Shown here piece after piece: positions 3,190-60,075 of a stretch of 64,000 nucleotides of DNA; position 1 is the stretch's first letter; each line of letters begins with the position of its first letter. Source of the DNA: Callorhinchus milii (Eukaryota). A model generated the notes under the pieces. It ran no database searches. It was not told the DNA's origin and was given only the letters and a program-made list of their open reading frames with translations. The DNA is taken from the NCBI RefSeq assembly GCF_018977255.1, contig NW_024704742.1:27034001-27098000 (forward strand), written 5' to 3'. A program made the position numbers and the translations under genes.

Positions 3190-3618
3190 CATTAACATAT
3201 TACTAATGATGCTTCAAGCTTAGGAAATGTCAGTTCCAGGTTAGATTGTTAAAAAAATGACCCGGAAACACTGATCGCTCTTGATCATGTATGAGTCACT
3301 CCCATGTTGTGTGTTGTGGCAGTTCAGTGTCATCCTCTTGCTGAACATCGGCCCTCCCTGTTGAGGGAATGTGTGTAGTTGGCACTTTGCAACTGCATTA
3401 ACGTCTCACCTTGAAGCAAACCTGCTCGCCATTTTGGTTGTCGTGAGCTCTTTGTAACTCATTTTCAGGCCCTCTACTAGCAGCCTTGGCTGAATCATGA
3501 CCAGCTTCCTCAGATGCAAAGATGGGTATGGTTAGCAAGTGTCGAATTGCACGCGAGCGTGAATGAACGTAAGACGGGTCAACTATTGACAGAAGATTTT
3601 ATTTATTAAAACCAACAG

Positions 3619-3830
3619 GGATAACAGAATTAGATGAGTTCACCATGGAGAGGGTCATGGAGGAGTTGGAGCGAAGATGTTACGACAACATGAATCATGC
3701 CATTGAGACCGAGGAAGGACTGGGGATTGAATATGATGAAGATGTGGTGTGCGACGTCTGCCAGTCTCCAGATGGCGAGGATGGCAATGAGATGGTTTTC
3801 TGTGACAAGTGCAACATATGTGTTCATCAG
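3619..3830 (+). CDS. JADE1: JADE1 coding exon, start of PHD1
   Basis: ccaacag|GG acceptor, CAG|gtatat donor, 212 bp, phase fits previous exon; [70 protein letters not shown]. Confidence 0.97.
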
Positions 3831-6705
3831 GTATATTCCTGAATTCATCCATTTTACTCAACGAGTTCATTTATTCAGGTGAAAGATGAGCACCTTGACA
3901 TATCACTGTGAAGCACCATGCTCCTTTTTTGTTAAGCTAAGCATGAGAGGATTGCTTTACGTACCAAGGTAACATCTAGTTAACTGCCGGCTTGTGATAT
4001 GATGTATTACAGTTTATACTTGCACTATGTTTCTTTTTAGAAAATGGGTTTTATCATCGCCCACCCCCCCTCCTCCTCCCCAGCTATGGTCATTCTCTGA
4101 TTGACTGGGTGTGATTGATGGTGGTGGGTGGGGGGAGATGGATTTGAAGAGAGAGACTTCTCATTTGACTTCTGTCAAGTTATTAGAGCCATGTAAGTCC
4201 CAGATCTCACAATCCCTTCCAGTGGTATTCCACACATATGCGAAGCTTTGGAACTCTTTCTCCCCCCATTCCCTCTATCTTGCCCCCTCTTTCCCCTCTT
4301 TTAGATCACGACTGAAGACCTTCCTCTTCGACCATGCTTACGGTCACCTCCCCCTTGCTCCCCGGCTTGGCGTCAGGATCCGGCACCGTAAAGCGCTCCG
4401 AGAGGCTGCCGTGCTTGAATGGTGCTGTATAAGTGCAAGTTGAAATGAATGATCATTGAAAGTAAAGTTGTTCCAATTCACCTGATGTCTGAATAGCTCC
4501 GTTTCTAATTACCTCCCCGCCACCCATGTGCGAGGTTGTGGTTTGCATCCCTCAACTTGCCCAAAATTGGGATTGTGTAAGTGTGAAAATCACGGACATC
4601 TGTATTCGTGTTCCCCCCACAGCTCCACAATGTGCTGCTGCATTGGGCTGACACAATACGTTGCATTGGGAAAAAAAATCAAGTCAAGACTCGTTCTATA
4701 AAGATTTTTTTTCCCCGAAACTTTTATCTGAAACCGAGAACGAGAAGCGGGACTTGTTTTGCTTTGGTTTCACAGAGCTGCGTTGAAATCACGCCAAGCA
4801 CATTGAAGTGACGTCATAAGGCGCTATATCAAATGCAAGGCTTCTAAGCATAAAAGTAAAAGGCTTTGCTGCTTTTGAAGTGGTTAAGAGCAGTAGATCT
4901 CAACAATAAACCAACGATATTCACACTAGAAAGAAGCAAATCTGCACTTCGGAATCATTTTGAGTGTGGGCGGCCAAGTAGTATTTGAAGGAATTGTTCT
5001 CTTATAAGCTTTTATTTACCACTGCTGTTGAAGTAGCTCTCTGACTACATTACCACTGTGAGGTTGCTGAAGGTGGAGAAGGTGGGGATATGCCTGTATC
5101 TTAAACAATACTTACTGCCTGTATGTCCAGCAGAGTTACAAGATTTTAGCTCTGATCAGAGCTTGGGCTGTTCCTTCACATTTTCCACACAGCAAGGATG
5201 CCGCCAGAGTGTGTTTAGACCCCACTGAGCTTTAATAGAGCATTGGATACCTCTGAAAGCTCAGATAGTTTATCCAGTAATAATTCAATGAAAATCCATG
5301 AAAATAAACAGTTCAGTAATTTAAATTAAATGTTTGACTTTTTAAAAATAAGTCAATGAAATACACATAAATACATGATACAGAAATGTTAATTTTAAAT
5401 TTAATGCTGATTGTAGTGGGTATGTCTATGGTACATATTTTGATTTTTATTCCATCCAATTTCCAATCTCCTCTCCAATGGTATTTGATTCCTTCGTACC
5501 TTCTACTAGGTCCCTGTCCCAATGGCGACAGTCATTCTGCAAGTACGATTGGTTTAGTGTGACATGCTAACACACTGCTTAACCAGGGCCTCACAGCCAA
5601 GTGCAGTCCTGATCACTGTTCAAACCACATGTGTATCTTCCTTTGTGGGGCTCACTGGTTATCGATCAGGGGCCCTGGCTCGTTTCCCCCCAACTAACCC
5701 AGAGCTGCTGAAGCCAAATGTATTGTTGTATTGCCCCAACTGATACCAACTAATTCAACACCGACCAAGGTTAGAACCTGCAGCCTTCCACTTCCTGTAC
5801 CATAGGGTGCTTTTGCTTTTACTAAATCAGGGAGCTTAAGTGTGGTACACGGTATACGAAAATAATATTTCATAATCTATTTTGATCACTTCAAAATGTC
5901 CATTCACGCTTGATGTGATACAAGTCTATACAAGTACTCTAATGTTTCATTGCTGCATCCTCAGTGTGTTGTTCTGTAATCTCACTGTAGATCAGGTTGG
6001 ACCATCAGGGATTCAAAACACATCATTAGGATTGGAAACAACCCAAGGGCAGGGAAATATGCAGCGGCAGAAGCATAATCCATTGGTTTATTACTAGAAT
6101 GTGATCATTTACCAGATCAGAGACAATGTGGTAACACCAGCTTCCCCGCCCTCCCTCCCTCTCTCTTTTGAGCATAGTGCTCAGAGGTACAGGATGAGAA
6201 AACGCAAACCGATCTCGTTTTATGCCTGTACCATCACAGAAAGAATTCGACAGTATTAACACAATGTGCAAGCAGGCATTAGAGACCTAGGAGATTAAAA
6301 GCAACAAAGTGAGGATGACCTGCAGGTTACACTGCTTGCTAATGTGGTAGCTGTTGCGAAAGATGGTGCAGACAAGCATGTAAGGCTTGCAAAGTCCTTA
6401 ATTGGTTTGCACAATGTATTGGATTACTGCTTGGCAGGAATCCAACGCATTGTGCAGATTTCTATAACTGACTTAGATGCTGTACTGCAGGTTATGTAAC
6501 TAACATGGAGGCTGGTGCTCAGTGGATTTAGTTGTCTCGCTGGTGAAGTATAAATTGCGCCATGTCTTGAGTTTTGGTGATATATTTACTCCTGAAGCCA
6601 ACTGAGCTTTGACTCTTTAAATACTTCACTTTGCATAAGGTGAAAAAAAAACAGGTGAAGCTTAAGATTGAGCTTTTGACCATGATGGTGGTTTGTGATC
6701 CTTAC

Positions 6706-8825: not shown

Positions 8826-9651
8826 AGGCCATGAATATTAATTAACATGTACTGTGACTGGAAGGCCTTGCATAATTTTCTTTAATGACCTATCTGAATT
8901 CCAAAACTTTTTGGAATGTTTGTTGCATGTCCGGCTGTTTGTACCTCTGTTTGAAATAATGCCAGAGAAAGCGTTTTCCGATAGTGGGAGGAAAACGCTA
9001 GGGGTTACGCTTCACGTTTGGTGGCGAATTGCTTTTATTTTGGCGGCAATTTGCCTTCATTTGTTCAGTGTAACCAACTACACCTCAGCCAGTGTGAATC
9101 ACATTGGACCCCGTGTCTGAGAGCAGATGGCGGAGGTGATTTCAAGAGCAGTTTAATCCTTTGCAATTGTAATGGCGACAGCAGGAACACTTAAACCTTG
9201 GAAAAGGTTGCAGCCTACTTCTAGGATTTTTCATTGATTTCAAAATAGATTGAATCTGGACGCTGATTGGCACCGAGGCTTAATCTGCTCGCAGTCTTCC
9301 ATGTAGATCTAAGGAGTAAATAGAAATCCCATGGGAGGCAGACTTTAAGTGCCATACCATCAGTTGAATTTTGAGTGCATTAGGAGACAGGTATTGAGTT
9401 TTTTCGGGGGGACAAAAAAGACATGCCTTTCGCGTTGCAGTCATCATCTTAGTGTGAGAGGCGTTCCCCGCTGGGTAATATGTAGAAGAAGAACAACACA
9501 CCTTAAACCTTTTAGCGTTTGTGGTAGTGCATCTGCTGAGCTTTCCTGGAGGCTGTGATTAGTAGAAAGGATTTTAAATAGGAGACATCTATCCCCTCCC
9601 TAGTCTGCCCTATTAGTGCAGGAAGTCATTGCACCTTTCTGTTTGTTACAG

Positions 9652-9819
9652 GCTTGTTATGGAATCCTGAAGGTCCCAGAAGGCAGCTGGTTATGTCGGA
9701 CTTGTGCCCTTGGTGTCCAGCCTAAGTGTTTACTTTGCCCCAAGAAGGGTGGGGCTATGAAGCCAACACGAAGCGGAACAAAGTGGGTTCATGTCAGCTG
9801 TGCTTTATGGATCCCAGAG
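9652..9819 (+). CDS. JADE1: JADE1 coding exon, PHD1 end / Zn knuckle
   Basis: ttacag|GCT ... GAG|gtaaga, 168 bp; [56 protein letters not shown]. Confidence 0.97.
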
Positions 9820-10370
9820 GTAAGAAACCCCCACCCCCCACCACCACCAACCCCGCATTCTTCTCTCACATCATTGTTTTCATTGAAATCTGAAGAATGC
9901 AGTTTGTTTGGCAATGCTTTGCCTGCAATGATCGCCTTTACTGTTAAGATTGATCTTCTGATACTAATACTACACGCAAGCAAGCATTTATTAGTTGTAC
10001 AAAGAAAAGGCAAAGCCAGAGTCTTAAATCGAGGACTTGTGAAACCTGGCAGCAGCTGTGTTTCCATCTTGCCATCGACTTGTTATAAGAGTAACAATAA
10101 TCCTTACATTTGGTATAGCGCCTTTTACGTCAGGAGGATGTCTCAAAACACTTCACAGGATATACTTTAAAATACTGCACAGTCACTGTGTGTTTTATGG
10201 GCGAACATATTTGAGCGTTTGGAAATGGTGGAATTTCTGATTCCATTCATTTCACAGAAAAGACTTGTACTATATATTTCTTCATCCTACCACATCCATC
10301 GCCTTGGGGGTTGTGATTGAAACCATAGGGCTTTTTATTAAACTTGTCCTAACTTTTATTTTTAATTTAG

Positions 10371-10487
10371 GTTAGCATCGGCTGCCCAGAGAAGATGGAA
10401 CCCATAACAAAGGTCTCGCACATCCCTACCAGCAGATGGGCTCTGGTTTGCAGCCTGTGTACTGAGAAGACTGGGGCTTGCATACAG
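10371..10487 (+). CDS. JADE1: JADE1 coding exon, PHD2 start
   Basis: atttag|GTT ... CAG|gtttgg, 117 bp; [39 protein letters not shown]. Confidence 0.96.
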
Positions 10488-12362
10488 GTTTGGAACAAAA
10501 TCCATTGCCTAATCTTAAGCATTTTTCAACCAAGTGGGTCACATCAAATAATGTGGCATGTGAATTACACATTGTGCAAATCAATCAACCTCCGTAAACT
10601 AGGGAGTTGCTATATTGCATTATGTTCCGAAGTAAGAAAAAAATAATTGAGTAGCGTGTGATAGCTATCTGGCTGAATTAATTTGGTTTCACACTAGAGG
10701 TAAAGGAACGTTTTCCTAAATATCCAGCATAACAGATATTCTATTGCAGGCCGTACCTGAGTTACATGCAGGTTGTCGCAAACTGATTTGAAATTGTTAA
10801 ATGGAGATAAATAGCTGATGAAACTGAGGATATGCCCCCAGGTTTTTTTTCCTCTTCCACAATTTGAATCAATTCTATTTCTGAAGGTACAGCCCTTTTT
10901 TGGGGGTTGTGTGTACTAAGTGACCTCAACTAAGTGGCTATTTATATTTCCAGTGTGAGCCCAGTCAGGGAAGCTAATGATTCAAAAGAGGTGGACCTCA
11001 CAATTTGCTAGGGTTAACTGGATCGTGATCTGGAGCAAGACTTTGGCTGATTTTTTTTATTTACTCTCCTGTGGATGAGGAAGCCGATTGTATAATAATG
11101 AATTGGTACAGCCTGTGCCAAGTTATTATTATCATTATTATTATTCAATTGGCACACCTCCTTTCCTCCCCCTCCTCTTCTCTCTTGCTCAGTATCTGGC
11201 TCCGTCCACATAAAGCGTTACAAGACATGTGTGAGGACTGAAGGATGCTTTAAAAACACAAGTTGCTGCTGTTGAGTGTAAAGTGAACAGCGGGAATAGC
11301 TGTTAACACTAAGCTTAAGATGGGGAATGAGGATGGGGGATAAATGTAAATAATAATAATCCTTGCATTCAGTATAGCACCTTTCATATCAAGAGGAGTC
11401 ACAGGATATAATAATAATAATCCTTGCATTATATGTACTGTAAAGAGTACGGATCATGCATTTGGTAGGTGAATGCGGCAGCTAATTTGCCTACAGCAGT
11501 GTCCCACAAACAGCTGTGAATTGAATGACCAAATTTTATTTGAGAAAGGGAGGGAAAAGCCCACTGTTTGACATAAATTAGTGATGTGCTGACTAATTAA
11601 ATTGCACAGTAATTGGCTAATACACAAGATAAGGTCAGTAGCCAGTGAGCATGGAAAGAGACTAGGTTTTCTCTAGGGAAAGCCAGTGGACTTTATCTGA
11701 CGCTCGGATCACTGGGTGACTGCGAGCAAAGGAATAGGCACCTGCTTTTTGAATGCTTTTTCCAGGAGAATTCTAACCCCCTCCCACACACGCGCATTTC
11801 ACGGAAAAATGGTACAATATTTGATTTCACCATTAAGATTCAGTCAAAACACTTTACAGTATATCCTGTGAAGCACTTTGAGACGTCCATCCAACGTGAA
11901 AGACTCTATACCAAACCCAATTATTGGGTTCTAAAAGTGTTGATTTCTTAGCAATAATAACTTTCAAAAGGGAATTGGATACTTACTTGAAAAGAAAAAA
12001 AATTGCAAAGCTACGGGGGAATAGCAGAGAACTGGGACTAGTTGGATAGCTCTTTCAAAAGAACTGGCACATGCACAATAGGCCGAATGGCCTCCTCCTG
12101 TGCCGCAGGATTGTATGAATCCCACGAGAATTCCTTCCGACCACGAGGAACTCCACTCCTGATGGAGGTAGCGTCAGAGCGGATGAGCACGATGGCACCT
12201 CTGGTCATAGGAATGAGTCTCCATTGGCGAGCTTTGGATAGATTCCTTGATGTTAAAAAAAAATTCCGTTAGGAATCTTGTGATCTGGACCCTGAATTGG
12301 TGGATCAGCAGCCTATCTCCCCGCACTAACTAACCTCTTCTCCTGTAACCTCCCTCCTGCAG

Positions 12363-12902
12363 TGCTCAGTGAAGAACTGCCGGACGGCCTTCCATGTCAC
12401 CTGCGCCTTCGACAGGGGTCTGGAAATGAAGACCATCCTAGCAGACAACGACGAGGTCAAGTTCAAGTCGTACTGCCCGAAGCATGGGAGCAGGCAGCAG
12501 GCCGTGGAGGAGGGGGCGGAGAGGGGAGGAGACCGAGGCCCCGGATGCATGGCAGAGACTCGGGAGAAGGCGTTGCCGGCAGGGAAGTCCTTGGCCCTGG
12601 ATCAGAGTCAGGAGGAGGAGGAGGAGGCACAGAGGATCGGGGCTCGCAAACAGAAACTACAGCAGCTGGAGGACGAGTTTTACAACTTTGTCAGCGTCTC
12701 CGAGGTTTCCCAGCAGCTAAAGTTCAGCGTGGATCTGGTGGATTTAATTTACCAGTACTGGAAGGTGAAGAGGAAGGACAACTTCAATAAGCCGCTCTTC
12801 ACTCCCAAGAAGGACGAGGAGGACAATTTGGCCAAGCAGGAGCAGGACGTGTTGTACAGGAGGCTGCAGCTCTTCACACACCTCCGGCAGGACCTGGAGA
12901 GG
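12363..12902 (+). CDS. JADE1: JADE1 coding exon, PHD2 end and following helical domain
   Basis: cctgcag|TGC ... AGG|gtgagt, 540 bp; [26 protein letters not shown]...[12 protein letters not shown]...[11 protein letters not shown]. Confidence 0.97.
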
Positions 12903-15789
12903 GTGAGTGCTCACTCCTGCCATTTTATTCACCGAGCTCTCGGGAATTTCACTGTTCCCTTATAATTTTTTTTGAAAATGTTATAAATGCCTTTAATTTA
13001 GATGAGCCTGGCTTTTTAAAAAAAAATTAAGGATACAGGAGAAAAATAGTTGGGAGCTGGGATTATATATTTTGTCCGTTGGCAGTGGCAGGGACACGGT
13101 GGGCCGAAGGGCCTCCTCCTGTGATGAGAAATGACGTTCCTGTATGTTTTTGTTCTGGTTGAATCGAAAATCCTCTCATTTTGCACTTTTTTTTAAAAAA
13201 AATGATAAATATAGTCAATGCACTTCCCAGTTTAATCCTGTGAAACGAGCGCTTTGAGATGTCTCGACGACGTGATAAATCGCTATATTAAACACAAGGA
13301 TCATCAACAATAGATACAGATTTCCCACTGACTGGGTGGGACTACGGACTTCTCTGTAATCGCCATCTTTTACAGTCATCCAGTGGGAAGGATATCTATC
13401 ATTTATATTTCTCCTCTCACCTAATCAGATGTACCTCGTCGCTAAGGGTTAATAGGTGCCCCAAGTTTGTGCCCACAACTTGGTGGATGAATCAAATCAC
13501 AAAGCAGGCTTTGAGCTCGGCCCTTTAGCTCACAGTTAGCGGATGCCAAGTCCCTAGAGGAGCAAGCAGCCCCCAACTGTCTTAATTGGACTAGTCACTG
13601 TGTCAATAAGAGGTTCACCCATGCCTTGGATTGAATTATATTGTTATGTATATTTCATTACAGGCCTGATGCTATAGTGCACCTCTATACCCTGTCACAA
13701 ATTAACACGCGGGTCCAAGAGAAGAAGTTCAAAGTTCATCTGTACTCCCCTTCCACAAAAACAAAAAGCCACATTACCTCGTGGTTTACGGCTTTGATTC
13801 TTGATTCAGATGAAGATCTGCCTCCCACCTGATGCTAGATTTACTCTCCATGTGGGATGAAGAGTTGCTTTCAGTTAGGGTACATTGAGGCTTCATTCGC
13901 AGGGCTGATTGACTGATGTTGAAATTCCAGTCGCTGTCCTGAGAATGTTTTTCTTTCACTCTGCTCTTGAGTGGAGCGCTGTGCTGGGACAATCTCGCAA
14001 TGTGAGCTTGCAGCCTATCATCATCCGTGGCCAAATGGTGCCCCATTGTGAAATGATGGAAATTCCTAAAATGTGTGAGCGAGACAAGGTTGAGGGACTC
14101 ACTCAGTAATGCACCTCACGTGACTTCCTATCAGCTGGGCTGGAAGTTCCCTTGTTGATGACGTGATAAGAGGATGTGCGGAGAAAGAGAGAGAGAGAGA
14201 GACGTAGATTAGCAAGGGAAGAAAAACTGTACCTTGAGAGCTCTCGTTTACAAGCTGTGGCAGATTTGAAAACATAATGAAGACAGTCTGGTTCTCAAGA
14301 TGTTAAACCCACAGCTCGTCCAATTCACAAGTGTAAAACGATTCCAGAAAGTAATTCCTACGTGGAAATGGGATGTGTTATGTCACTGTAAACGCCATTC
14401 TCACTATTGGCAAGACTGAGCCCCTATGTTTTTGACCTGGTGGCTCCCCTCAATTGTATAAGCTCTGTATGTATCTGCTCTCTGCCCTTTCTCCCAACTT
14501 AACCTTATGTCATCTTGATTCCAAGATTGCATTTCCAAATCTTAAGTTCTCTTTCTTACGTTTACCTATAGTCGTGCCCCACTCATTGAATGAGTTAGCA
14601 ATTAATCCACCACATTTTTCTCCTCCACTTTAATATAGCACATTATATTTGCTGTTTGCTGCTGGTTCAGTCTGAAATCTGTTTAAAGCAGGATAGATCT
14701 TTTACAATGCAGTCAATTTCACATAAGGGGATTACAGAGTATCACTCAGTGAATTTTTTTTGGGTAAGCTGCCAGGATTTGAAAATTGTAATTATTTTCT
14801 ATCTGCCCTCATGACATTTATTTCCCGTTTCTGGATTAGGTTTACCACGTAAATTCCTGCTCATATTTTATTTTGGCTCGAGTTAGAGCCTCGATGCCCT
14901 AGATCCCTTGAAGAATCTGCTGCATGGTGTCTAAACAGTGTCCTAAACTGCGGCAAAAAAATAATGGACGGTAGAAAGTTTACGTTCATGAAAATCATCT
15001 GATTTACTACTAAGTGCACAGCGAAGCTGTGTAGAGGGAAATCCTGGGTAAAGTTTTGCTGTGAAGCCCTGATCAGGGAATGTTGTTTGAGGCACTAGCA
15101 TTAACTGTACGGGTTTGAGGGGTGAATATTGATTGACAAGAGGCATTGACCCTTGCTATTCCTTGCTGGGCTGGGCCTGAAATGAGCAAGGTGCCAGAAG
15201 AGTTTTCGTTTTAACTTTTTGTTCATACTGTGGCTTTTCCTTCTCTGTGCAATACTGGACGTATACAGTGTGGCAATACTGTAATAAAATCCAATAAACA
15301 CAGCTGCAGGCTTTGTACAGTACACACTGCGTGGCTATCTCTTATTTTCCAATTTCCTCTCCCTTCTGTAGAAGGTTTCTTAGCGTCTGTGCTGATGCAG
15401 CCTTTACTTTCCTCGGCAGCCGCTTACAGGTCTTCATTCTATCCCTGCAGTTGACCATGAGTGGGGTGATAGCTTTCTGAACTCAGATAGGACACACTCC
15501 CTCCCTGTGTTATTTGTTTCAGTGCTGAAGCTGTGATTCTGTTGGGGAAGTGGGTTGCGGGTGAGAGCAAAAGAGCAGCTACCTGGCATTAATCTCTGCA
15601 GAATTTGGACTATCTTTGATTTTGTTGTAAAATCACTTGACACATCATTTTCGCTTGTATTAACTCTTGATATAAACTCCCAAGATAAAATGAAGATCCT
15701 CTTTTAAACAGCATGTGGTAGAAAATACTATTTATATTGTATACACCGGTATATATAAAAATTGCCTCGCAGCATCTCGCATAATCAAT

Positions 15790-16640: not shown

Positions 16641-16758
16641 GTTAGGAATCTCACTTACATGGTGACCCGAAGGGAGAAGATTAAGAGAACAATCTGTAGA
16701 GTCCAAGAGCAAATATTCCAGCACCAGATGAAACTTGTCGAGGAGGAGCGCATTTCTG
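16641..16758 (+). CDS. JADE1: JADE1 coding exon (long isoform)
   Basis: cactag|GTT ... TCTG|gtgagt, 118 bp; [39 protein letters not shown]. Confidence 0.96.
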
Positions 16759-19700
16759 GTGAGTGGAGCAAGAGCACGGCTAGACGTCTGCTTGGTCTGA
16801 TGTCTCCCTTTTCTCTCCCCTTCTTCACAATAGAGCTGAAATGCTGGTCAGTGGTCAGCCAGAAGTCGCCGTTCGTGGTCACAAGTGCTGCGGTGTAATT
16901 CTCGGCAATAATTTTAACCCATTTAATCCAAAATCCGTAGTTGTTCTCGCAGAGAAAGATTGAAGCTTCTTGCACAGGCAATCAGTGACTTGCTAATAAA
17001 GTCACTGTTGAAAGTCGAAAGGAGTTGTTGTAGTTCTGGTTCAGATGCCTAGGCCTAGTGTGTGCTGAGATAGCAAATAACATAAGAATTGCTAGACGTA
17101 AGAAGTCCAAGGTCCATCCAGTTCGCTTTCCACCATCCTGGCAGTCGCATGTACATGTCATGCCCAAACTATACACTCTATCCCAAGATATTGTTTCCTA
17201 AAAGAAATCTAATAGCAGTCATGGTGAGAGGAAGTGTGCTACAATTAGCCTCAGAGTGCCTGTGTTGGGAAGTGGTGATGTTGTATTTGCCACAGTTTTC
17301 ATTCCAAGATTGCTAGCAAGTCACTGGAAAATACACACCTCGGGTTAATGGAACAAATTTGGCTATAAATCTGCACGGTCATAGTCATAGATGTTGCCGA
17401 CCTGCTCTGCCTCAACTTGTACATTTATTTTGGGTCAGCCAAGTGACGTAGTCCTAAACCATCAGCATCTTTAAACATGGTTAAGTGCTATTTCAAGGCA
17501 CTGCTAAGGACAGACCATCCAGCACTGGCATATTAGCAGGACTTAGAGGGACTGCCCAGTCATTCAACATGGATTATTCCCACTCGGCTCCTGTTAACCC
17601 TGCAAGCTAAAGCCCTAACAGTTAGTGTGGTCCAAGCTGGACAAACAGCAGGAAAGCTTCCCAGTCAACTTTTGCGATGGTAAGCTGTACAATATTAGCA
17701 AGTTAAACTCCAACAGTAACCCCCAAACTATGTTCTATGGGACCCCAAACCTTCGTTCTTGCCAACTGGCATAACCTACACCTAAACCTTCCAGGGTTAG
17801 ATAAGCAGTGTGCAGAATCGAGCCACAAAGGACCCCCTTGCTGCATGACAATGTTATTCTCTGTTTAGTTCTCAGATCTCAAAGCAATATAAAAGTAAAC
17901 TGTTGGAGTCCTGTGGATACCCAGCCAAGGAAACAGATTACTGTGACTGCCAGAGGGTCAACTCAATGCCAATACTCCATTACTGTATATGTGCGCTGGA
18001 GCCAAATCATTCCCAATCCCAGTCTCAGACCCCACTTACCTCTCCTCTCCCCCCACCCCCCCCCCTCAAAGGATAATCATATTAGAACAACCAACAGCGA
18101 AGTTGGTCACACAGAATTCTGAGTCCTGCTCCTCCTCAACCAATGTGAAGGATGTGATAGTTTCAATATGTGCAGGTCTAATACGAATTTGTTTGACATC
18201 CAGCAGTTTTTGTAACTGCAATACTTTTCTTTGGTTAAATGCCCACTGCACATCTGAAGACAGCGCTTTACATTAATAACTGCAGGGATTGTGAATTTAC
18301 GAGCACAGCTGTTGGAAACCACTGCACAGAATCCACTGTCAGATCTCGAGGTCTGAGCACTTGAACAGAGAATAACGTTGGCATGCAGTAAGGAGGTCCT
18401 TTGTGACTTGAGTGTTGATTTGATTTTCCATTACACCAGTTAAGTACAGCTGTTGTGACCAGTGGATTAGATTCTCCATAACCCTCATAGAATAGAACTA
18501 GTCATTAGCAGCTCAGTGGTCTAGTCTTAATCCCTTTTGAGAATGACTAGTAGTGTCACGGAAGCACACCAAAACACTAGCTCGCATGAAGGGTGCTATG
18601 TAAATGCAAGGTGTTGTTGTTGTTGACTTTGATTTTCGGGTGGTGATATAGGTCGATGTAGCTGATCACTAGTGAACCTCCCCACTCACCTTCTTTACAA
18701 GATGGGGACAATCTTAACCTGTTTTGTTTTTGTGCCTGTGGAGTACAGGAAAAACAAACATAAACACAATGAGCTTACAAACAACAACAGCTACTTGCAT
18801 TTATATAGCGCCCTTCACGTAGATTAACATCGTCTTGCAGTCACTTTATCTTTACAGTGACCTGACTTCCCCGGTTCCTGACCCTGCAGCATGTCACAGC
18901 CACACTGAGATCCCATTGTTTGATATGCGTTTTTTTTGCTCTATACAGCAATTTTGCTTCTGTTATCAATTTGCCACAATTTATCTCCACACATTCCTGA
19001 CTGCGCTCTTCTTTTCGTTATTTGTGCTGTCAGGTTTTCAAGTGAATATTGAGCCCTGAAGGCTTCTTTGCAGTGAGGATTGCTTAATGTGGGAAGAGCT
19101 TGATTATAGCAAGCATTTGGTAGAGAAGGCTGCAGAGTCATTAAAATGCACCTTTACTTTGGACTGCTATGGTTGGTATGATGCAGAGAGAACTTGCCTT
19201 CAGAGGCTAATTTGATGTCGTCAGTCTGTCCATTGAAGCCCCATTGAGTGGGCAAGTCAGTGGTAACGCTTGACAGCTCTAGGCTATCTTCAGCTGGGCT
19301 GGCTGGTTTCAAAGGCTGAACACAGTCAGCAGGTTCTGCTTTCCACGAAACAAAGACTGTTGTTTCTAGAGCTGACAACATGGAGTGGGGGGAAGGGGTT
19401 AGTAATTTCTGAACAGGAAGGATTGACATAGACTGCAAACACGTTTGAAATTCTGGAAGCTTTGCTTATTCTTACAGCTGATGTGCATCAAAAAAAAACA
19501 TTTTCAAATCGGCTTGTGTTTCCCACTGAAACATTACTCGAATTTCTAAGAACTTGCAGGAGATTTTTTTCCCCCTCCTCTTTGCCAGGAGAGAAAGTGT
19601 TCCCTGCGTCCTCAGGAATGCACCACCCCCCCTACCCCCTCCCATTCGTGTTTCTTTCGGTTCCTGAGACAGCATTGTGGGTTCTGAGGCTTTTCCTTCC

Positions 19701-22961: not shown

Positions 22962-23107
22962 CATATAAATGCAGTTACAAATGTCAATTGCGTGTTGGTC
23001 CCTTTGAGCGTTTATTAAGGGAATACTGAAACCCGCACCCTAAATGCTAATTGATGTTCAGGCCTGTAGCAATACGACGCTGTAAGTTGTACCCTTTTGT
23101 TTTGTAG

Positions 23108-24089
23108 GTGTGCCTTCAGCATTCCCGTCGGATGAGGCTCTATTCCTTGGTTGGTTGGCGCAACCTGATCAATCGGATGATTTCCAATGGCGATCGAGCA
23201 ACCGGGAGCTGGGAATGCCTGGCCAGCACTCGGCCCGAGTGTGGCGTGCAAGCAGCTCCCACGTGGGCGACAGAATGCGAAGCCACACAGTCGCTGCCCA
23301 CAAGAGTTTGTTGAAACAATCGAACCGGGTCAGTGAGGTCAAAAGCAAAGCTGACCCGCACAGCACGAGGGAGGATTACAGTAGCCCGCGCGCTCTCCCG
23401 TCGTACGAGAAAGTGCGGCCGGGATCGCAAGGGAGCACCCGGGAGAGGAGTAATGGATTGGCCGGATCTGACTTGAGGAGGAAAACCGAGGGCAACATGG
23501 GATGTAAAACGGAATCGAGGGACAGAGCTTCTTCGAGGCGAGAGAAGTCTCTTGCGGCCATGGAATCCACCCTGAAGCAGTCGGAAAACAAGCGGGTTTT
23601 GTACGCTCCGACCTGCAGGCTGCCCGCCATCGGCAGTCGGAGGTTATCCGGGGATGGCAGCCTGGCACACACAAAATGCAATGGTACTTTGAGCCGGTTG
23701 GCTTGCAACCAAACGACCCTTCCTATTGCTCGTCCTGCAGTCAAAGTGCCTACCACCCCTACGAGCCCAGTGAAAAACTGGGGTGGGTTTAAAATCCCGA
23801 AGAAGGGAGAAAGGAAGCAGCACAGGGAGACACAGGAGGCCTGCGGGCAGAACTCAGAGGCCACCAAATACCAGCATTTGGGCTTACAGAGAGCATCTTC
23901 CAAAGAGAGGCCGAAGGTAAGGCTGTTGCCGGACAGTGAAAACGATGGCTACAGCCCGATGCTGAAATGAGCGACTCTGAGAGTGAGACGACAGACAACT
24001 GCAAGCCACAGAGGCTAAGTTCAAACAGTGCTATAGTCAACAGGCGGTACGGAGCAGACATTATTCGAAGAAGCATTCTGGCCTCTTGA
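23108..24089 (+). CDS. JADE1: JADE1 last coding exon; apparent 1-bp frameshift near 23955-23958
   Basis: tttgtag|GT phase-1 acceptor; contains SPVKNWGGFKIPKKGER and ENDGY. As written the frame stops at 23970, but the -1 frame continues DAEMSDSESE...DIIRRSILAS* to TGA at 24087-24089, the recognisable JADE1 C-terminus. Confidence 0.9.
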
Positions 24090-26940
24090 GCTAGCTGAGA
24101 GTGACAGCAGCAGCAAGTACAGTCACTGCCTGGTGTCCTAGCCCAGACCTATCTAAACTGTAATGAAATGCCTTGTTGTAATTTCATGTTTTTACACTTG
24201 AGTACTTGGTACCTCGGGGCATTACTCATCGGGAGATGAGTTGGTCAGTAAATAGCTTGTGTTTGAACTTGAAGGCTGCAGTGCTGCAGTTACATTAATC
24301 TGCCCCATGTACAGTTCCAGCACTTCAGGAAAGCCTTTCAAATGATCCAGTTTTATAACAGTAAAACATAAAAACACTATAGAAAAAAGGGTTCGATAAT
24401 GATTACATTCATTTTACATCTCAATAGTTCAGTAATCTGCTGCGTGTTTTCTTTTCCAAAATGGCTTTACAAAGCATGCAATATTGTTTTTAAACAAAAT
24501 CTGCAGATTGTGTGCTACTTCTGACAGAATGGATGTGTAGCAAGATTTGGGCTGGACAATCAAATGCCTCAAATAACAACTGTAGATTCAAAATGTTGCT
24601 CGACTCTTGCAAACCACTCTTTGTGTTTTAAAATGCCAGCGTTCAGTTGTAGTAAACTTTCGGATGTTGCTGTTTCAGCGTTTTTAACNAAAAATACTCA
24701 GCCAGTCGCTAAATACATGAGTGCTTAGTATCAGAAGAGCAATCATTTGGGTGGTGTACAACTAGAGAAAGGTTATTTTGTACAATCGCTGCAGAAAGCA
24801 AGGGCATCCCTTGAGGTCTGTAAATTCTGGAATTTGTACAGTAACCTGACTTGTATGACTGGCTAACAATTACTTGTACAAGAGTAAGGAATAACAGCTG
24901 GAAGCACAAGCGTTTTAGCTGCGTTCTTCCTGCTTTGCTCCTGCAGGAGTGAAAGGTTTGTTAAGTGTTCAAACTGTCCTGTGACACTTAAGAAGAACAT
25001 TCTTAATTTCTTAATTTGACGATTGGTCTGTTTGTAATGTGTTGATCTCCTGTTCATTAACATTTAATATATTTTTTTAAAAAGCCGCATGTTTCAATGA
25101 CATTTTTCAATCCTTATTTTGGATAATCTTGTTTTGCCATCAGAAGAAATAATTGTGCTAAAATACTGAATGAGGGATTTGTAGCACTATGCTTGGCTAT
25201 ACTGGTATCAAAGATGTTCTGAACTCTAGTGTAGAAATTACACCAGATCCTCTAAATGGCTGTTTAGGGAAACTCCACAGAAAGAACATTGCCGAGAGGG
25301 ATTTATTGGCTGGCTTCCCTATTCGCGAGAGAGCTGTAAGCAATAAATCAATTCTATTGAAGGTTGAGATACACTAGTGCTATTGAACCTGGGATACTTT
25401 TCCAAGTACAGTGCCACAGAACTAAACAGCTGACGTCCAATAGTTTGTGCCATTACACTATTTTGTAGCTCTTTTAAGTGACCAGCAAAGGGATAGAACT
25501 AGTCATAAAAGGGTAGTCATTTCAGTAAATGTAATATTTTTCATGTGCTCTTATCATTTGATCTCAGGATCTAAAATGTATTTATGTAACCTGGACATTC
25601 CTGATCATTTTTTGTGTGTTAATTTCTAGGGGGTTTAACTGGTGTTCTATTCTCAGCAAACACTGAAATGAACCAATTTTTGGAGGGAGGCTGGAGGGGG
25701 CACATTAAAAAGAATAGGTTTGACTTCACAATTGTTGAGAAAATACCACATCAAATAAAATCTATTGTGAGCTTATTCAGAACATTTAAAATGTTTGAAT
25801 ACATCAGGTTTCAATGTGTTATGAACTTGTTACAATTGATCTTAAGTTTTCAAAGTTTGCAAAACTCTTACTGTCTAAAGTATCGCACATACTGCACTAG
25901 ATTTATTTCCTGCTCATGTGTTGTCGTTTAGTTGAAATTCATTTTGTTAATGAGTGGCCTTTCCTAATCTTTTGCCAGTGCAATAGTTATGTACTAATTT
26001 CCTATGTGACAAGAATCCCCCAATGAATTCTGGAAGGAAAATGTTTTGCTCCGTGTTTGATATGGAGTATTTATGCATCCCAGATGTTCAGTTTGAAATA
26101 TATGAAGCATCTTAACATTTGCTGTTAACATGTGTTTTATCAATGACACACCATCTCACACACTGTCTGAAGAAAACAGTCACTAATTTTATGCCTTGCT
26201 TAGTTTTTTTTTAATATACATACCTGCACTAAATAATTTTTTGGATAGAAGTAGGCAGTAAGTTAATAACATGAGGATGATGGTCTACATAACGGCAACT
26301 CAGACAGTTCTTTTATACTTAAGGCTTTATAATTTTTTCCATTTGCTTAATGGTCAAATTGATCTTAAATTATGATTTTAGTATATATGTATATATAAAT
26401 ATTGTAGTTTGACATTAGGCTAGTTGAGCTACTGTGTAGTTGCTTCTGGCATGCGTAGTTTTACGAAAAAGTGATGTAATAATAATATTAATAAGCATCG
26501 CCGCATTTGATATCGCGCCTTATCACGTCGTCGAGACATGTTAAAGCACTTCACAGGATATACTGTAAAGTGTACTGACTGTATTTTGTGGGCGAAACTC
26601 GGCAGCCAATTGTGCCCAGCAGTGTCCCTTAAACAGTCAATATTTTTGTGAGGGACAGAAGCTCCCCTCCTCCACTAGCCAGCGGTGACTGAGAATAACA
26701 TCTCTGTGTTTGGCTCTGATACAGATATGTGTGGAGGGGACTCATAAAGGGATAAATTCCACATAGTCTATTTCTTGTTGTTTTGTACATACCTGCTGAA
26801 CAAACTTTGCAGTGTGGTGTTGTACAGAGGAAATAAATCACCATGTGCCTAGCGAAGTTTAACTGTTGTCCATTTAATTCTGACGAGCAACATGATGCAT
26901 GGAAATAAATGCAGAAATAAAGTTTATACAGAGACGACTA
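24090..26940 (+). other. JADE1: Probable JADE1 3' UTR
   Basis: AT-rich, mostly repeat-poor sequence after the stop, ending at clustered AATAAA signals. Confidence 0.6.
26477..26660 (-). mobile_element. SINE 3' fragment inside the JADE1 3' UTR
   Basis: Reverse complement of the common SINE tail and Deu-like segment. Confidence 0.78.
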
Positions 26941-31332: not shown

Positions 31333-31649
31333 CTGTAAAATAAATTAAAATTTTCTAATTACAATTTGGCGAAAGTCATTTTTGTTGGCTTGCGTTCTCT
31401 CCAATGTAATAATATGTTAGTATAGACGTTTGAAGCACAGCGAATGGGGATTTTTCCTGTAACCAAAGTATGACGCAGTTGTGGGAACTCTGCTCTGAAA
31501 GCATTCTCCTCTCATAATTTATTAATTATGGAATCCCCTTTTGAAATCTCAGCGTTTCAGACCTTTCAACCTTCCAGGTACCAGGATATTGAGGACCTAA
31601 CTGCAAAGCAAACCAACCTGTGAGTATAATTGAATTTAAGTTTATATTG

Positions 31650-32170
31650 AGAACATAAGAATCTAAGAAATAGGAGCAGGAACAGGCCATTCGGCCCCTC
31701 GAGCCTGCCCCGCCATTTAATAAGATTCACCCTCTGAATGAAGAAATGTTTTCTCAACTCAGTTCTAAAAGGCTGACCTTTAATCCTGAGACTATGACCC
31801 CTAATTTTAGATTCTCCAACCAGGGGAAACAGTCTCACACTATCTACCCTGTCAAGACCCTTAAGAATCTTATAGGTTTCTATAAGATCACCTCTAATTC
31901 TTCTATATTCTAGAGAATATAGGCCTAGTCTTCTCAATCTCTCCTCGGAGAGGAGGTCAACCCCCTCATCCCAGGAACCAACCTAGTGAACCTACGTTGC
32001 ACCCCCGCTAAGGCGAGTATATCCATTCTTAGATAAGGAGACCAAAACTGCACACAATATTCCAGGTGCGGTCTCACTAAGGCCCTATACAATTGCAGTA
32101 AGACTTTCCTACGCTTGTACTCTAACCCCTTTGCAATAAATGCTAACATGCTATTAGCCTTCCTAATTGC
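31650..32170 (-). mobile_element. CR1 LINE 3' fragment in the last SCLT1 intron
   Basis: LYRALVRPHLEYCVQFWSPY and LGLYSLEYRRIRGDLIETYKIL in two frames; CR1-type tail. Confidence 0.92.
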
Positions 32171-43850: not shown

Positions 43851-45804
43851 TATTTGTCGTTTCATGAATTCAATTAAATTGTTTCATGAATTGTGCATTA
43901 AATCAGAAGTCTAATGTTCCGATTTAACATTTCCATTTTTATACTATTTAGCACTGCAGCTACAATAATACCATTTTAGGAAAATCATCTGTTGCCAGTC
44001 AATTCAGTTCACGATAAAGCACTAATGATTTACGGTCACAATTCTGCATTTAAATTATCCATCAGTTTTATTGATTTTTTTTAAAAAAGGAGCTAGTTTG
44101 TTTATTGTATACCATGGTTCACATGTAGATTAAATAGTGCGAGACTAATGGAAAGTCTTACTTGCTGCAAAAATATAGAGATGGCAATTGAAGCATATGT
44201 GCTTGTTGACATTCAGTTTTTCTTGTATAGATAAAATATTTTGTTCTTCCTGCACGCTTGTGTCTGCTGGCACTATAATAATGGGGAACTTACTCTCAAG
44301 ATCCTGCCAATTCCACTGGGGAGCCAGCATCTATCAGATATATAACTGAGGATGACTCTCGCTCTGGGGATAATCACACCACAATAGTTAGGGGAAGCAA
44401 GAGGGATCTGATATAGATTTTTGCAGGGTGGGGGGGTGGCATCCACAAACAAACAAATATTGCTTTATGGAGGCAGGGTGTTTAGTCCATCATTAACCTG
44501 AGAAATTTATGTGTTGAAGAATGAGGAATCCATTGGAAATAAATTTCAACTCTTACATCAGCTACAGTATGGATTTCCTTAGAAAGATGAGCTTTAGTAG
44601 AATAAATAGCCTGTTTATTATTGGTTTAATAATGGGTAAAGCTTCTTTGACACTGTCTGTCAATGGGTGTCAACACCCCTCCTGAGAAGGGCATCCTCTG
44701 CTCCACAATCCCCCTACCAGCTGTCCAAGTGGTCTCTCTAAATGAGTGGTTAGGCAATGTTGTGACCTGATCTCACCGCCAAAGATGTGAGTTGAAATTG
44801 CCTCCAGGGATCTTTAGAGCAGGCAGAGAGAAAATATTGATTTATTATTTTGGACTGCACTTAATCCAGATTCCAAATGGTGAAAGAACAGCGTTCTGAC
44901 CCTACAAGCCACCTAATTTCCTTAATTCCTTGCCCCCAAACAATGCTATATTTCACAATAAAAATGCATAATTGGAACTAATTCATTTCTATTATAGCTT
45001 TTAAAAGGTGAACCTTTATGCCTCCCTCTCCCATCCCATCGAGATCAGTGAAAAAGTGCAGCTTCTGCTTTATTCCATTGAAAACTCATATTCTGTTCCA
45101 CAGAAAGATGAGAGTGAATGTATACAATAGATCCATATTATGTAGAATAGATTTAAGGGGAGGTAAGCAGGTCTCTTTGGAGCTCAACTGGCTCCAAGCT
45201 GATATGCTTAGCTACAGAATGCTGGAATGTAGTGGCCTCAGGAGCCCAGTTCTTGAGCCGGACAGGTCAGTGGTATTCCAGGCCACTGCTGATGTCAGAC
45301 CAATCAATCCGGCTCATCAGCAGGACTTGAGAGGCAGACACTGGGGCAAAGGATTCTTTCCACTCAGCTCTTGTTAACTCTGCAAGTCAAAGCCCTTAAA
45401 CAGGTAGGCTTGTCTAGCTGGACAAGCAGCAGGAAGCTTACCAGACGGTCTTTCGATGGCAAACTATGCAGTTTTAATTGGTTAAACACCAGCAGCATTT
45501 ACTCTCAATGTACACTCTAATGTCCCCAATTGTTGGTTCTTGCCAACCTGCACTCTCCGAAATTAGGTAAGCAGGGAATAGGGTGCATAATCTATTCCAG
45601 ACACTGGAATTTATAATATAATAATCCTTACATTTGCACCTTATCACGTCTTTGAGACATCTCAAAGGGCTTCACAGAATATACTGCAAAGTGAATTTCC
45701 ATGTGTAGGTAGCATACATGAAACTTTCAGTCTGCTTTGGATACTCTTAAGCATGGTGAGTTTATAGCACATAAAAGAAAATTTATTGCACCAAGTGATC
45801 TTAC

Positions 45805-45982
45805 CTGATCTTTCTGCAAATTTGCTTCTTCGAGGAGTTGAATGCTGTCTCGAACCTTCACTACTGAGTCATATTTCTCTTCCTCCATCTCAGCACATTT
45901 TGCCTGTAGGGCGCCAATTTGTCTCTCAAAACAAAATCTTTCTTTCCGTAATTGTTCTGCATCCTCTACAGCTACTCGTAGC
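45805..45982 (-). CDS. SCLT1: SCLT1 coding exon
   Basis: taatag|G ... CAG|gtaaga, 178 bp; LRVAVEDAEQLRKERFCFERQIGALQAKCAEMEEEKYDSVVKVRDSIQLLEEANLQKDQ. Confidence 0.95.
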
Positions 45983-47569
45983 CTATTAAAAAATGCAATA
46001 ATATTCAAATCCAAAAGAGGATTTGGATTAATAGGATAATAGCAATAATGATTACCAAATGATGCAGATTACAGTATTTCATGCAAAATTCACCAGTGAA
46101 ATATATCCTGTTATTAAATACATTGACTATGAAAGGTGATCAGAAAGATTTTTGGAATTGTAAATAAAGTTAACATTTAAAAAAATCTGATTAATACAGT
46201 TTAAATGTAAAATAATTCTTTACTTTCCATATATACCCAACAATTATTCCATTCAGAAAAAGATGCCTCAACTAGCAAAACAGAAACCTTATAACATTTT
46301 TCAAGTACACAACATGCAGAACATAACAGACAAAAATAGGCCAATGTGGTGTTTTGGAAGATCTTTCATTTGCAATCCCCAAGGAACGGTGGGGAGGGGA
46401 AAACTAATTTTGAAGTTCAGTTGAGGTTGAGTAAATTCACAATTTATTCTGCCTGGGTTTTATTTTGCTAATAATTTAATACAAGTAATAGGCCTATTAA
46501 CCACTAATACATTAAAGATCCCATGGCGTTATTCGAAAAGAGAAGGGAATTTCTCCCTAACAATTCCTCAAATAAATTTGGCAATTAACTTTATCGCTAT
46601 TTGTGGGACATTAATTGGCTGCTGCGTTTACCTACAAAATACACAGTCACTACTCTTATGTGAAGTGCTTTGAAACTTTACTGTAAAGTGTTGTGACTGT
46701 GTAACTTGTGGGCAACAAAATGCCATGCAAACTAAGTGCTGTTGATGTAGATTGATATGCTGGAATGTGTGTTTTATGAACATAGTTTTGACTGAGCTTT
46801 TGGTTAGCATCTTTAGCTTTGGGACATGCTGCCGACATGATGTCCTCCTGATGTGAAAAGTGCTATATAAATGCAATTTGTTGTTGTTAGCTCTTTTTCC
46901 TCCCGGCTCAGTGCTCCCCGAGATTAATTTCTGAAGTTGTAAACATAAATGGAAATTGACTATTTTGAAAAAAAACTTAACTACAATCTTTTGAATTCCA
47001 TGGAAAATGTACTTAAGGAATACTATAATAACAATAACAAATTGCATTTTTATAGTGCCTTTCACATGGAGAGGATGTCCCAAGGTGCTGGACAGTGAAA
47101 GGTTTGCACCCAAAAGGTGTGGAGGGCAAGAGGGTGGATTTGGACGATAACGGAAGGTGCGAGCGATCAAAGAGGAAGGTCTTGAGAACTGAATTCTGAA
47201 TTTGCTTACAATATTTTCTCTTTAATAACTACCATGCATGAAACATCAGATAAAAAATTCTTCTGCGATATTCTCTGCACGACGTTCAATGCTATTATAG
47301 CTCCAAAGGGCAACAATTTAGTTAACTCTTTCGAGGATATCTCTTGCCTTTGAAATTCTGAAATATACTGTCTTAGTCAAAATGCCCTGTATGGCAAAAA
47401 TAATTTATTAAGATTTACATAAAGCAATCACAATATTTAAGATAGTACAAAACTACATATTATTCCTTCAATTATATTCAATTAATAAACTGTGTAACCT
47501 GGTTCCTTTGAAGTTTGGTACATGAATGATGCTGGGATTCTCAATGGAATAATTGGCACTTTCTAACAA

Positions 47570-53399: not shown

Positions 53400-53617
53400 A
53401 ATAATAATCCCTTCAAAACCCAAAACAATAAAAAATTGGTCATTTTCAATCTACGACTGTTTGTGGGACATTGCTGTGCGCAATTGGCTGCCGCGTTCGC
53501 CCACAAATATACAGTCAATTCACTTTACAGTGTGTTCTGTGAAGTGCTTTGGGACGTCCTCCCGATGTGAAAAGCACTATATCAAATGCAAGGATTATTA
53601 TTATTATTATTATTATA
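53400..53617 (+). mobile_element. Young SINE, 5'-truncated
   Basis: Same body and tail; ends about 35 bp from a SCLT1 splice donor. Confidence 0.88.
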
Positions 53618-53652
53618 ATACTTGCTGTACAAGAAGTAGAAAAGTTACATAC

Positions 53653-53743
53653 TTTCCTCTGTATTTCTTCCTGTAAATTTTGCATAATTTGGTTCATTTC
53701 CACCACTTTTAATGTTGCTGTTCGCATGTCCAGCTTTGCTCGC
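53653..53743 (-). CDS. SCLT1: SCLT1 coding exon
   Basis: gtgcag|G ... AAA|gtatgt, 91 bp; RAKLDMRTATLKVVEMNQIMQNLQEEIQRK. Confidence 0.9.
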
Positions 53744-54922
53744 CTGCACATACACAAACAAACTGTTAACATGACAAGAGCGACATCGGTCTGGTGCAAT
53801 AGATCATATATGTGCTTTGCTCGTGTGTAAGATTATTACATCCTAATTAGCTTTGTTGAATCTACTGCTGGAGCCTGAGAAAATGGAACATAAATTTCCA
53901 ATACAGTAGTTAAAAAAAAAGTTACTCTTTGGTTGACATGAGGAAAATTAGGAGATGGCTAAGGATAATGGAAGAGAAGGAAGCAAGAATCCTGAGAGAT
54001 AGGAGTCCAGATCTATTCCTTTCTCTCTCAGAGGTAACATGGTCCATTTAACACCTAATAACTAAACACTGTTTGTCTACAAATCACGCAGAAACAACAT
54101 TTTACAAACATCTTCCTCCGTGAAAGGCGCAATATAAGGATTATTATTATAAGGATTATTATTATTTGTTAATATAAGTTAACCACATATGTGTAACAAA
54201 GTTACTTCATGTCTGCACCCTTGTTTTGGGTGGGATGGGGAAGAGGGGAAAGAATCATGTGGGGTAGGATGAAGAAAGCAGTAAGGCGGTGGACAGAGAT
54301 TTTCTTCCAATTTCACCTTTCCTTTCCCATCAATATCAAATGCAAGGATTATTATTATTATTATCTTTATGCAGAAGCAGAAGAGAGAAGTAGGGGACAT
54401 CAATTGTAAGTTAAAAAAACTACAACCTAAATGTAATTTATAAAATTTCACTGCCATCTAAAATCATGAACAGACTCAACCAAAACAATCAACTGGAAAT
54501 GGACAGATTTGTAGTTTAATAGGAGCAATGATATAGGCTTAGCGTCACACAGCTCCTGAATAAAGGATGTAAACTGCACGGAATCAATTTTCTTTTCCTA
54601 CTTATCTTTTGTTGAATTCTGCCCAATACACTCTACATTTAGTGGTTAGGTTTGCCTGCAGCATACACACCAGCTGATAATTATCTTGGGCAGCATATGG
54701 ATCCGATGATAGTAATTAGAAAACAACACCATGTATGCTGGCCCTTCAATACACTGTGTCATAGAGGAAAAGAACATGTAGACTTTACAATATATGGTAA
54801 AGCTACCCAAAGGGGTCAAATTATTTTGCAACACTTCCAAATTATTGAGTAGCAACTGATATGTTATACCCATGACGAGGTATAAGACATGGTGAAAAGA
54901 ACTATGAAAGTCGATTATGTTG

Positions 54923-56694: not shown

Positions 56695-57200
56695 CTGTTC
56701 AAAACATAATGGAGGAAAAGCTCTGTGAAGCTGTGTATACAGAAGACTGCCTTATAAAAAAATGATAGGGAAATCTTACGTTTCCAAGTATAGCACACAT
56801 GACTCCAGGGTAACAGAAACCTAACACTGTAGGCCAGTTTCCTAAATACAAAAATACAATGTACTTTACACTTAGCTTAGGAATCATGTTCTGGTCATTA
56901 TATTGTTTAATAGATAACATTATTTATCTCCTTCAAATATATGAAGACTGATACTGAATAGTTCATCTACACCTCAAATTTAATAATGCAAGGATTATTA
57001 TTATTGTAAGTTTGTTTCCACAAAGGGACTTCATTGAAAGAAGTTAAAAACTTAATAACTGATGATGACTTTTCTCCTACATAGTTTTCAATATTAGTAA
57101 GACTAAATATTCCAGCTTCCCCCCCCCCCCCCCCCCAGCAATCGGGTGTATATAAACTGCAGCTGGGTTGGATTGACATTTTCCAAATGTTTTTTCTTAC

Positions 57201-57266
57201 TGTGGTCATATTTTCATTGGCCAACTGAAGCTGCTGAGTAAGCTGTTGGAACCGTGTCAGCTGTTC
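57201..57266 (-). CDS. SCLT1: SCLT1 coding exon
   Basis: tttcag|GAA ... ACA|gtaaga, 66 bp; EQLTRFQQLTQQLQLANENMTT. Confidence 0.9.
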
Positions 57267-57558
57267 CTGAAACAAAAATACCAGAGAGCTATGTGGTTGC
57301 TGGTGCTGCTCACAAGAGAATGACATTTATGAAGCTTTCTTTATTAATTAGCGACTCTATTCATCACTGTTGTTTTGCATACTGTTGAATTTTTTTTTAA
57401 TAGACAAACATATCAATACACTGGAACAATATTTCATTATTTTTGTTTAATTCTATGCAATGGCAGAATATGCAGTGATGTTGAGCGCTTTGAGATGTCC
57501 TCCTGACATGAGAGGCACTGTAAAATGTAAACTGTATTATATTGTATGAAGGACACAC

Positions 57559-59374: not shown

Positions 59375-60075
59375 ACTGGTCTATGCTGGAGTTTGTGCTC
59401 CCCATGAGCCTCCTCCTACCCTTCCTCAACTAAGCCTTCAAGCACAACCTTCTATTCCTTTCTCCCTCATGTACCTATCTAGCTTCCCCTTAAACACATC
59501 TATGCTAATCACATATATTTGCCTCAACAACTCCTTGTGGTAGCATGTTCCACATTCCCACTACTCTGTGTGAAGAAATTTCTTCTAACTTCCCTATTTG
59601 ATCCATTTGTGACTATTTTATATTGATGGCCCCTGGTTTTGGTTCCCCCCACAAGTGGAAACATCTTCCCTATGTCTACCCTATCAAAACCTTTCATCAT
59701 TTTAAAGACCTCTATCAGGTCACCCCTTATCCTCCTCTTTTCAAGAGGAAAGAGTCCAAGTATGTTCAGCCTTTTCTGATAGGTATAACCTCTCAGTTCT
59801 GGGATCATCCTTGTGAATCTCCTTTGCACCATCTCCAGTGCCTCTACATTCCTTCTATAATGTGGGGACCAGAACTGCACACAGTATTCTAAGTGTGGTC
59901 TAACCATGGTTCTATAGACGTTTACCATAAATTCCCTGCTTTCATTTCTGTCTCTCTAGAAATGAACCCCAATGCCTGGTTTGCTTTTTTTTAATGGCCT
60001 TATTAACCTGCGTTGCTACTTTTAATGAATTGTGTATGTGTACCCCTAGGTCCCTTTGCTCCTCTATCCCATTTA
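59375..60075 (-). mobile_element. CR1 LINE 3' fragment
   Basis: VRPHLEYCVQFWSPHY...LEKRRIRGDLIEVFKMMKGFDRV. Confidence 0.92.

Follow-up and report, generated by a model that had tools for sequence, protein, structure and literature searches.

The stretch of Callorhinchus milii DNA analysed here (64,000 nucleotides; hereafter, the window) holds, to judge from its protein matches, most of the elephant shark JADE1 gene. In vertebrates, the long isoform of JADE1 (PHF17) is a scaffold of the HBO1 histone acetyltransferase complex, and its C-terminal part is required for binding to ING4/5. A search with the exon translation among longer proteins retrieved 183 proteins at E ≤ 0.001, the top match being the C. 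milii Jade-1 isoform X2 of 901 amino acids (XP_007895904.1, hereafter P0001; 99% identity, E 8e-182), followed by proteins from sharks and one skate with 53–62% identity. Nearly all the named homologues among the 120 listed, out of these 183, are annotated as Jade-1. The precomputed Pfam assignments of P0001 (PF10513, PF00628, PF13831, PF13832 and PF13771) comprise EPL1, PHD and extended-PHD families and, together with the exon by exon match to Jade-1, they identify the gene as a JADE1 orthologue.

Comparison of P0001 with the window by tblastn recovered its residues 126–901 in seven exon blocks, all of them on the forward strand. The five earlier blocks (476–682, 3606–3833, 9637–9822, 10371–10487 and 12330–12905, all given with HSP bounds and unrefined splice sites) together encode residues 126–536, and the tblastn alignments of P0001 revealed no frame breaks within them. 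The penultimate coding exon (16641..16760) corresponds to residues 536–575 and is followed by a GTGAGT donor, whereas the last coding exon is directly preceded by a splice acceptor AG at positions 23106–23107. The upstream part of this last exon (23108..23957, within a tblastn block spanning 23107–24086) encodes residues 575–858, and its C-terminal coding part (DAEMSDSESE...DIIRRSILAS, 23958..24089, contained in the ORF 23940..24089) matches residues 858–901, with 44/44 identical positions. The 3' untranslated region starts at 24090; it is covered up to 24600 by a spliced contig from a public run (X1, see below), which matches the window over 23107–24600 and extends past the latter position. 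Only two residues differ between the exons of the window and P0001, with Q for R around 12498–12500 and T for I at 23437–23439. We rejected the possibility that a paralogue or a processed copy was being confused with the JADE1 exon, because a genome search with the stretch 23700–24200 matched the window's own place alone, at 100% identity; this stretch is single copy and, hence, no second gene copy is involved.

As written in the assembly, the reading frame of the last exon is broken. The sequence around the site is ...GGC TAC AGC CCG ATG CTG AAA TGA, with the CCC run at 23955–23957 and an in-frame TGA at 23968–23970 of the forward strand, so that the stop-to-stop ORF 23086..23970 (+; 294 aa with the standard code) has the C-terminal end ...ENDGYSPMLK. 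A second stop-to-stop ORF on the same strand (23940..24089; 49 aa) encodes KRWLQPDAEMSDSESETTDNCKPQRLSSNSAIVNRRYGADIIRRSILAS, and its frame comprises 43 codons from position 23958, DAEMSDSESETTDNCKPQRLSSNSAIVNRRYGADIIRRSILAS, before the stop at 24087–24089. In tblastn comparisons, P0001 aligned with the window in frame +1 as far as 23958, with 283/284 residues identical, and then in frame +3 at 23955–24086, with 44/44 identical, making positions 23955–23958 the sole change of frame relative to P0001 in the window. The second open frame is not due to chance, because P0001 matches on both sides of the break. This protein is continuous across the site (...ENDGYSPDAEMSDSESE...DIIRRSILAS), and the sequence GYSPDAEMSDSESE spans it both in P0001 and in all five of the C. 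milii Jade-1 models in its cluster. An earlier, sequence-only reading of the window had described a last-exon frame that stops at 23970 and 43 codons open from 23958, which proved correct to the base, and had likewise taken the frame downstream of the break to be intact and to encode the JADE1 C-terminus, in agreement with its full identity to P0001.

We then have to consider what independent C. milii data show at this site. A search of public runs with the stretch 23100–24600 listed 24 runs, 17 of them with all or part of the stretch, from 5 studies. Four runs, from four samples, were compared over the 1501 bases of the stretch: X1 (P1), X2 and X3 (P2) and X9 (P3). All four are Logan contigs, which offer one consensus per run, with rare variants dropped and no read counts; X1 was flagged as near-identical and is possibly the source of the assembly. 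In all four runs, belonging to three studies, a T is inserted behind position 23957, between this and position 23958 of the forward strand. The site is covered by one contig per run, with word depths of 9.2, 9.31, 9.76 and 32.4, and, apart from the extra T, no letter is gained or lost anywhere along the 1501 bases in any run. With this T the sequence becomes AGC CCT GAT GCT (Ser-Pro-Asp-Ala), the TGA at 23968–23970 falls out of frame, and the reading frame continues to ...SILAS. The four runs and the window also vary at 12 listed single-letter places, indicating that the runs are not copies of one sequence.

These data modify the repair proposed in the sequence-only reading, which was a fourth C in the CCC run at 23955–23957, to be verified by counting CCC versus CCCC in reads. 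An extra base is indeed uniform in the four contig sets, but its letter is T and not C, generating the codon CCT; a fourth C was therefore rejected as the repair. As for the two residue differences with P0001, the four runs agree with the window at 23437–23439, where the older model P0001 is the outlier, and the site near 12498 lies outside the region compared with the runs.

Whether these runs are RNA or DNA is stated in the record as a guess, and none of the listed runs containing the stretch is recorded as RNA; we deduced their kind here from splicing, intron coverage and size. The match of the X1 contig with the exon ends at 23107, and its preceding 30 letters are those of 16729–16758, at the end of the penultimate exon, after which comes the GTGAGT donor. 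This contig joins two exons directly, which indicates that it derives from a spliced transcript and that the T is present in mature RNA. Conversely, the X3 contig reaches into the intron by around 625 letters past 23100, and that of X2 covers the intron letters 23100–23107. The contigs of X2 and X3 amount to 897 and 963 million letters, respectively, for a genome of 991.5 million, and most likely represent whole-genome DNA, in which case the T is also present in genomic DNA.

The presence of the T in both kinds of contigs bears on the idea that the base is truly absent from the gene and that programmed ribosomal frameshifting, transcriptional slippage or RNA editing brings the message back into frame. 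The sole point in favour of such recoding is that the downstream frame is open and conserved. It predicts an mRNA that is out of frame like the genome, yet the spliced X1 contig and the X9 contig carry the T, which puts the message in frame; moreover, the T also appears in the intron-including, DNA-like contigs of X2 and X3, so that no correction at the RNA level is needed. The target frame opens at 23940, after a stop at 23937–23939, which would confine any shift to positions 23940–23970, and we found no slippery heptamer of the type X XXY YYZ in this interval. The exon contains a single heptamer of this shape (TTTGGGC, around 23877), located upstream of the stop at 23937–23939. The absence of a slippery heptamer had already led the sequence-only reading to regard programmed frameshifting as unlikely, and both the interval examined and the DNA-like contigs agree with that view; we consider recoding of any kind extremely improbable.

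The end of the protein encoded beyond the break is highly conserved. Among the 120 listed homologues (183 in total), 119 end in ..[IVL]I[RH]RSILA[ST], in the forms IIRRSILAS (95 proteins), IIRRSILAT (18), IIHRSILAT (4), VIRRSILAS (1) and LIRRSILAS (1), and the pattern ..DSENDGY.PD.EMSDSE...IIRRSILAS is common to proteins from sharks through mammals. In the window, the conserved ..IIRRSILA[ST] end is encoded at 24060–24086, in the frame open from 23958, and is in frame with the rest of the exon once the T is present. No Pfam families were found in the 43-residue tail at E ≤ 0.01.

The one listed homologue without this end is P0005, a Jade-1-like isoform X2 from the skate Leucoraja erinacea, which differs over the last ca. 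27 residues. The skate sequence in this part, ..EQEVWDRYYSKKHPGLL.., looks like a translation of the same exon in its other frame (compare ..VRSRHYSKKHSGLLS, from positions 23987..24094 of the window), and this similarity suggests that the skate model might also contain a frame change, whether through an alternative isoform, through an indel or through an error of assembly. The C. milii cluster ends in DIIRRSILAS in four of its five models, and the fifth, P0123 (C. milii Jade-1, 864 aa), shows ..AIVNRREHL in place of the ..NRRYGADIIRRSILAS of the others, as an alternative model of the last codons.

The existence of such alternative ends, ..NRREHL in P0123 and a tail in the other frame in P0005, is what could be invoked for considering the early stop as that of a natural, alternative short-tailed isoform. 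Nevertheless, the stop is produced solely by the missing base, no splice joins were seen in 23100–24600 in the four runs, and the ending ..GYSPMLK is absent from the 120 listed homologues and from the four further cluster members, all of which makes this explanation exceedingly unlikely. In human, JADE1 is described as occurring in a long form, of 842 residues, and in a shorter splice form, JADE1S, without the last 333 (PMC4111752); the two isoforms diverge in their C-terminal region, and most molecular work on JADE1 has used the short one (PMC4111752; bioRxiv 10.1101/2021.10.01.462752). The passages available from these two sources do not address the role of the last 43 residues of JADE1. The product deduced from the assembly resembles JADE1S in being a C-terminally shortened JADE1, although the latter arises by splicing and loses a large fragment, whereas only 43 residues are concerned here, through a missing base. 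This absence of a base is not shared by the RNA contigs.

Conservation of the tail is also pertinent to the alternative that the deletion is real and represents a very recent allele of the sequenced animal. Its product would be a JADE1 long form ending in ...GYSPMLK and devoid of the conserved last 43 residues, and, with the break located in the last exon, its message would be expected to escape nonsense-mediated decay. The deletion is certainly present in the assembly as written, and contig data, with one sequence per run, could miss a minor or private allele. Against this, the T appears in the four other runs, from three studies, and all five earlier C. milii protein models read through the site. 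Additionally, a frameshift should face negative selection, given that 119 of the 120 listed homologues retain the tail, and the codons past the break are undamaged (44/44), as expected for an error and, for an allele, only if it were very young. In general, a single-base consensus error in an assembly is a much more frequent event than a private frameshift in a conserved gene. In our opinion, a real allele in the sequenced animal is improbable, and slightly more so if specified as a private one-base deletion, perhaps present on one chromosome only, leaving a JADE1 long form without its last 43 residues. If true, this private allele would constitute a natural knockout of a tail that is conserved from sharks to mammals.

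All the other datasets compared contain the T, including RNA contigs, DNA-like contigs and earlier protein models, and we infer that the reference animal itself carries it. The break is very probably not a biological feature but a mere deletion in the text of the assembly, within an ordinary JADE1 gene. Indeed, independent C. milii data contain the base in 4/4 runs and in 5/5 protein models, and we hold it to be very probable that the one-base deletion is a consensus error of this assembly and that JADE1 itself is intact. Under this explanation, one T would have been lost from the assembly between the C at 23957 and the G at 23958, in the last coding exon, and the true sequence would be AGC CCT GAT GCT, with a single frame up to ...DIIRRSILAS. 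The deletion would adjoin the CCC run while sitting outside of it, neither transcription nor translation would be affected, and the gene would be whole in the animal. Compared with the JADE1 long isoform of vertebrates, there would be no biological difference: the exons match residues 126–901 of the C. milii protein P0001, save for the two residue differences, and it is the assembly text that is short of one T.

Other positions of the window are consistent with occasional indel problems in the consensus. The sequence-only reading had pointed out single Ns at 24689, 35007 and 48944, which we confirmed as the only Ns in the window, and each of them immediately precedes a homopolymer of 5–6 nucleotides (N+AAAAA, N+TTTTTT and N+TTTTT, respectively). 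It looks as if the consensus was unable to settle the length of the run at these three places. The location of the Ns before homopolymers indicates that the consensus was unsure of indels in places, which fits with a residual single-base deletion elsewhere. The break in JADE1 is thus similar to known single-base assembly indel errors in that a base lacking in the assembly is found in all the independent datasets, and in that uncertain Ns occur beside homopolymers elsewhere in the window. Such errors arise most commonly in homopolymers of the missing letter. However, the T lost here stands alone between C and G, outside any T homopolymer, which differs from a classic homopolymer-length error and counts against a consensus error. 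Equally, the fact that the missing base is a T, and not a fourth C, indicates that no C homopolymer was miscounted. The homopolymer assembly error put forward in the sequence-only reading is consequently retained for its first half, an artefact-like loss of one base, and abandoned for the second, a miscount of the C run, because a lone T is missing.

The correction, consisting of a T after position 23957 of the window, corresponds to a site near 27057957 of contig C1 of the assembly (G000), and its significance is for annotation only. With the assembly as it stands, a gene caller would either lose 43 conserved residues from JADE1 or mark the gene as low-quality or disrupted. More generally, the case serves as a modest warning of single-base deletions outside homopolymers in this assembly, and other apparent frameshifts in it deserve a similar comparison with reads before they are interpreted biologically.

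Downstream of JADE1, the window contains long ORFs that are all on the reverse strand, at 31569–31982, 59527–59955, 45730–46068, 53518–53832 and 56970–57326. No Pfam families were found at E ≤ 0.01 in six long ORFs of this downstream part of the window. Judged by eye, two of the five ORFs listed resemble the tails of reverse transcriptases from retrotransposons, and the other three resemble pieces of coiled-coil exons belonging to a neighbouring minus-strand gene.
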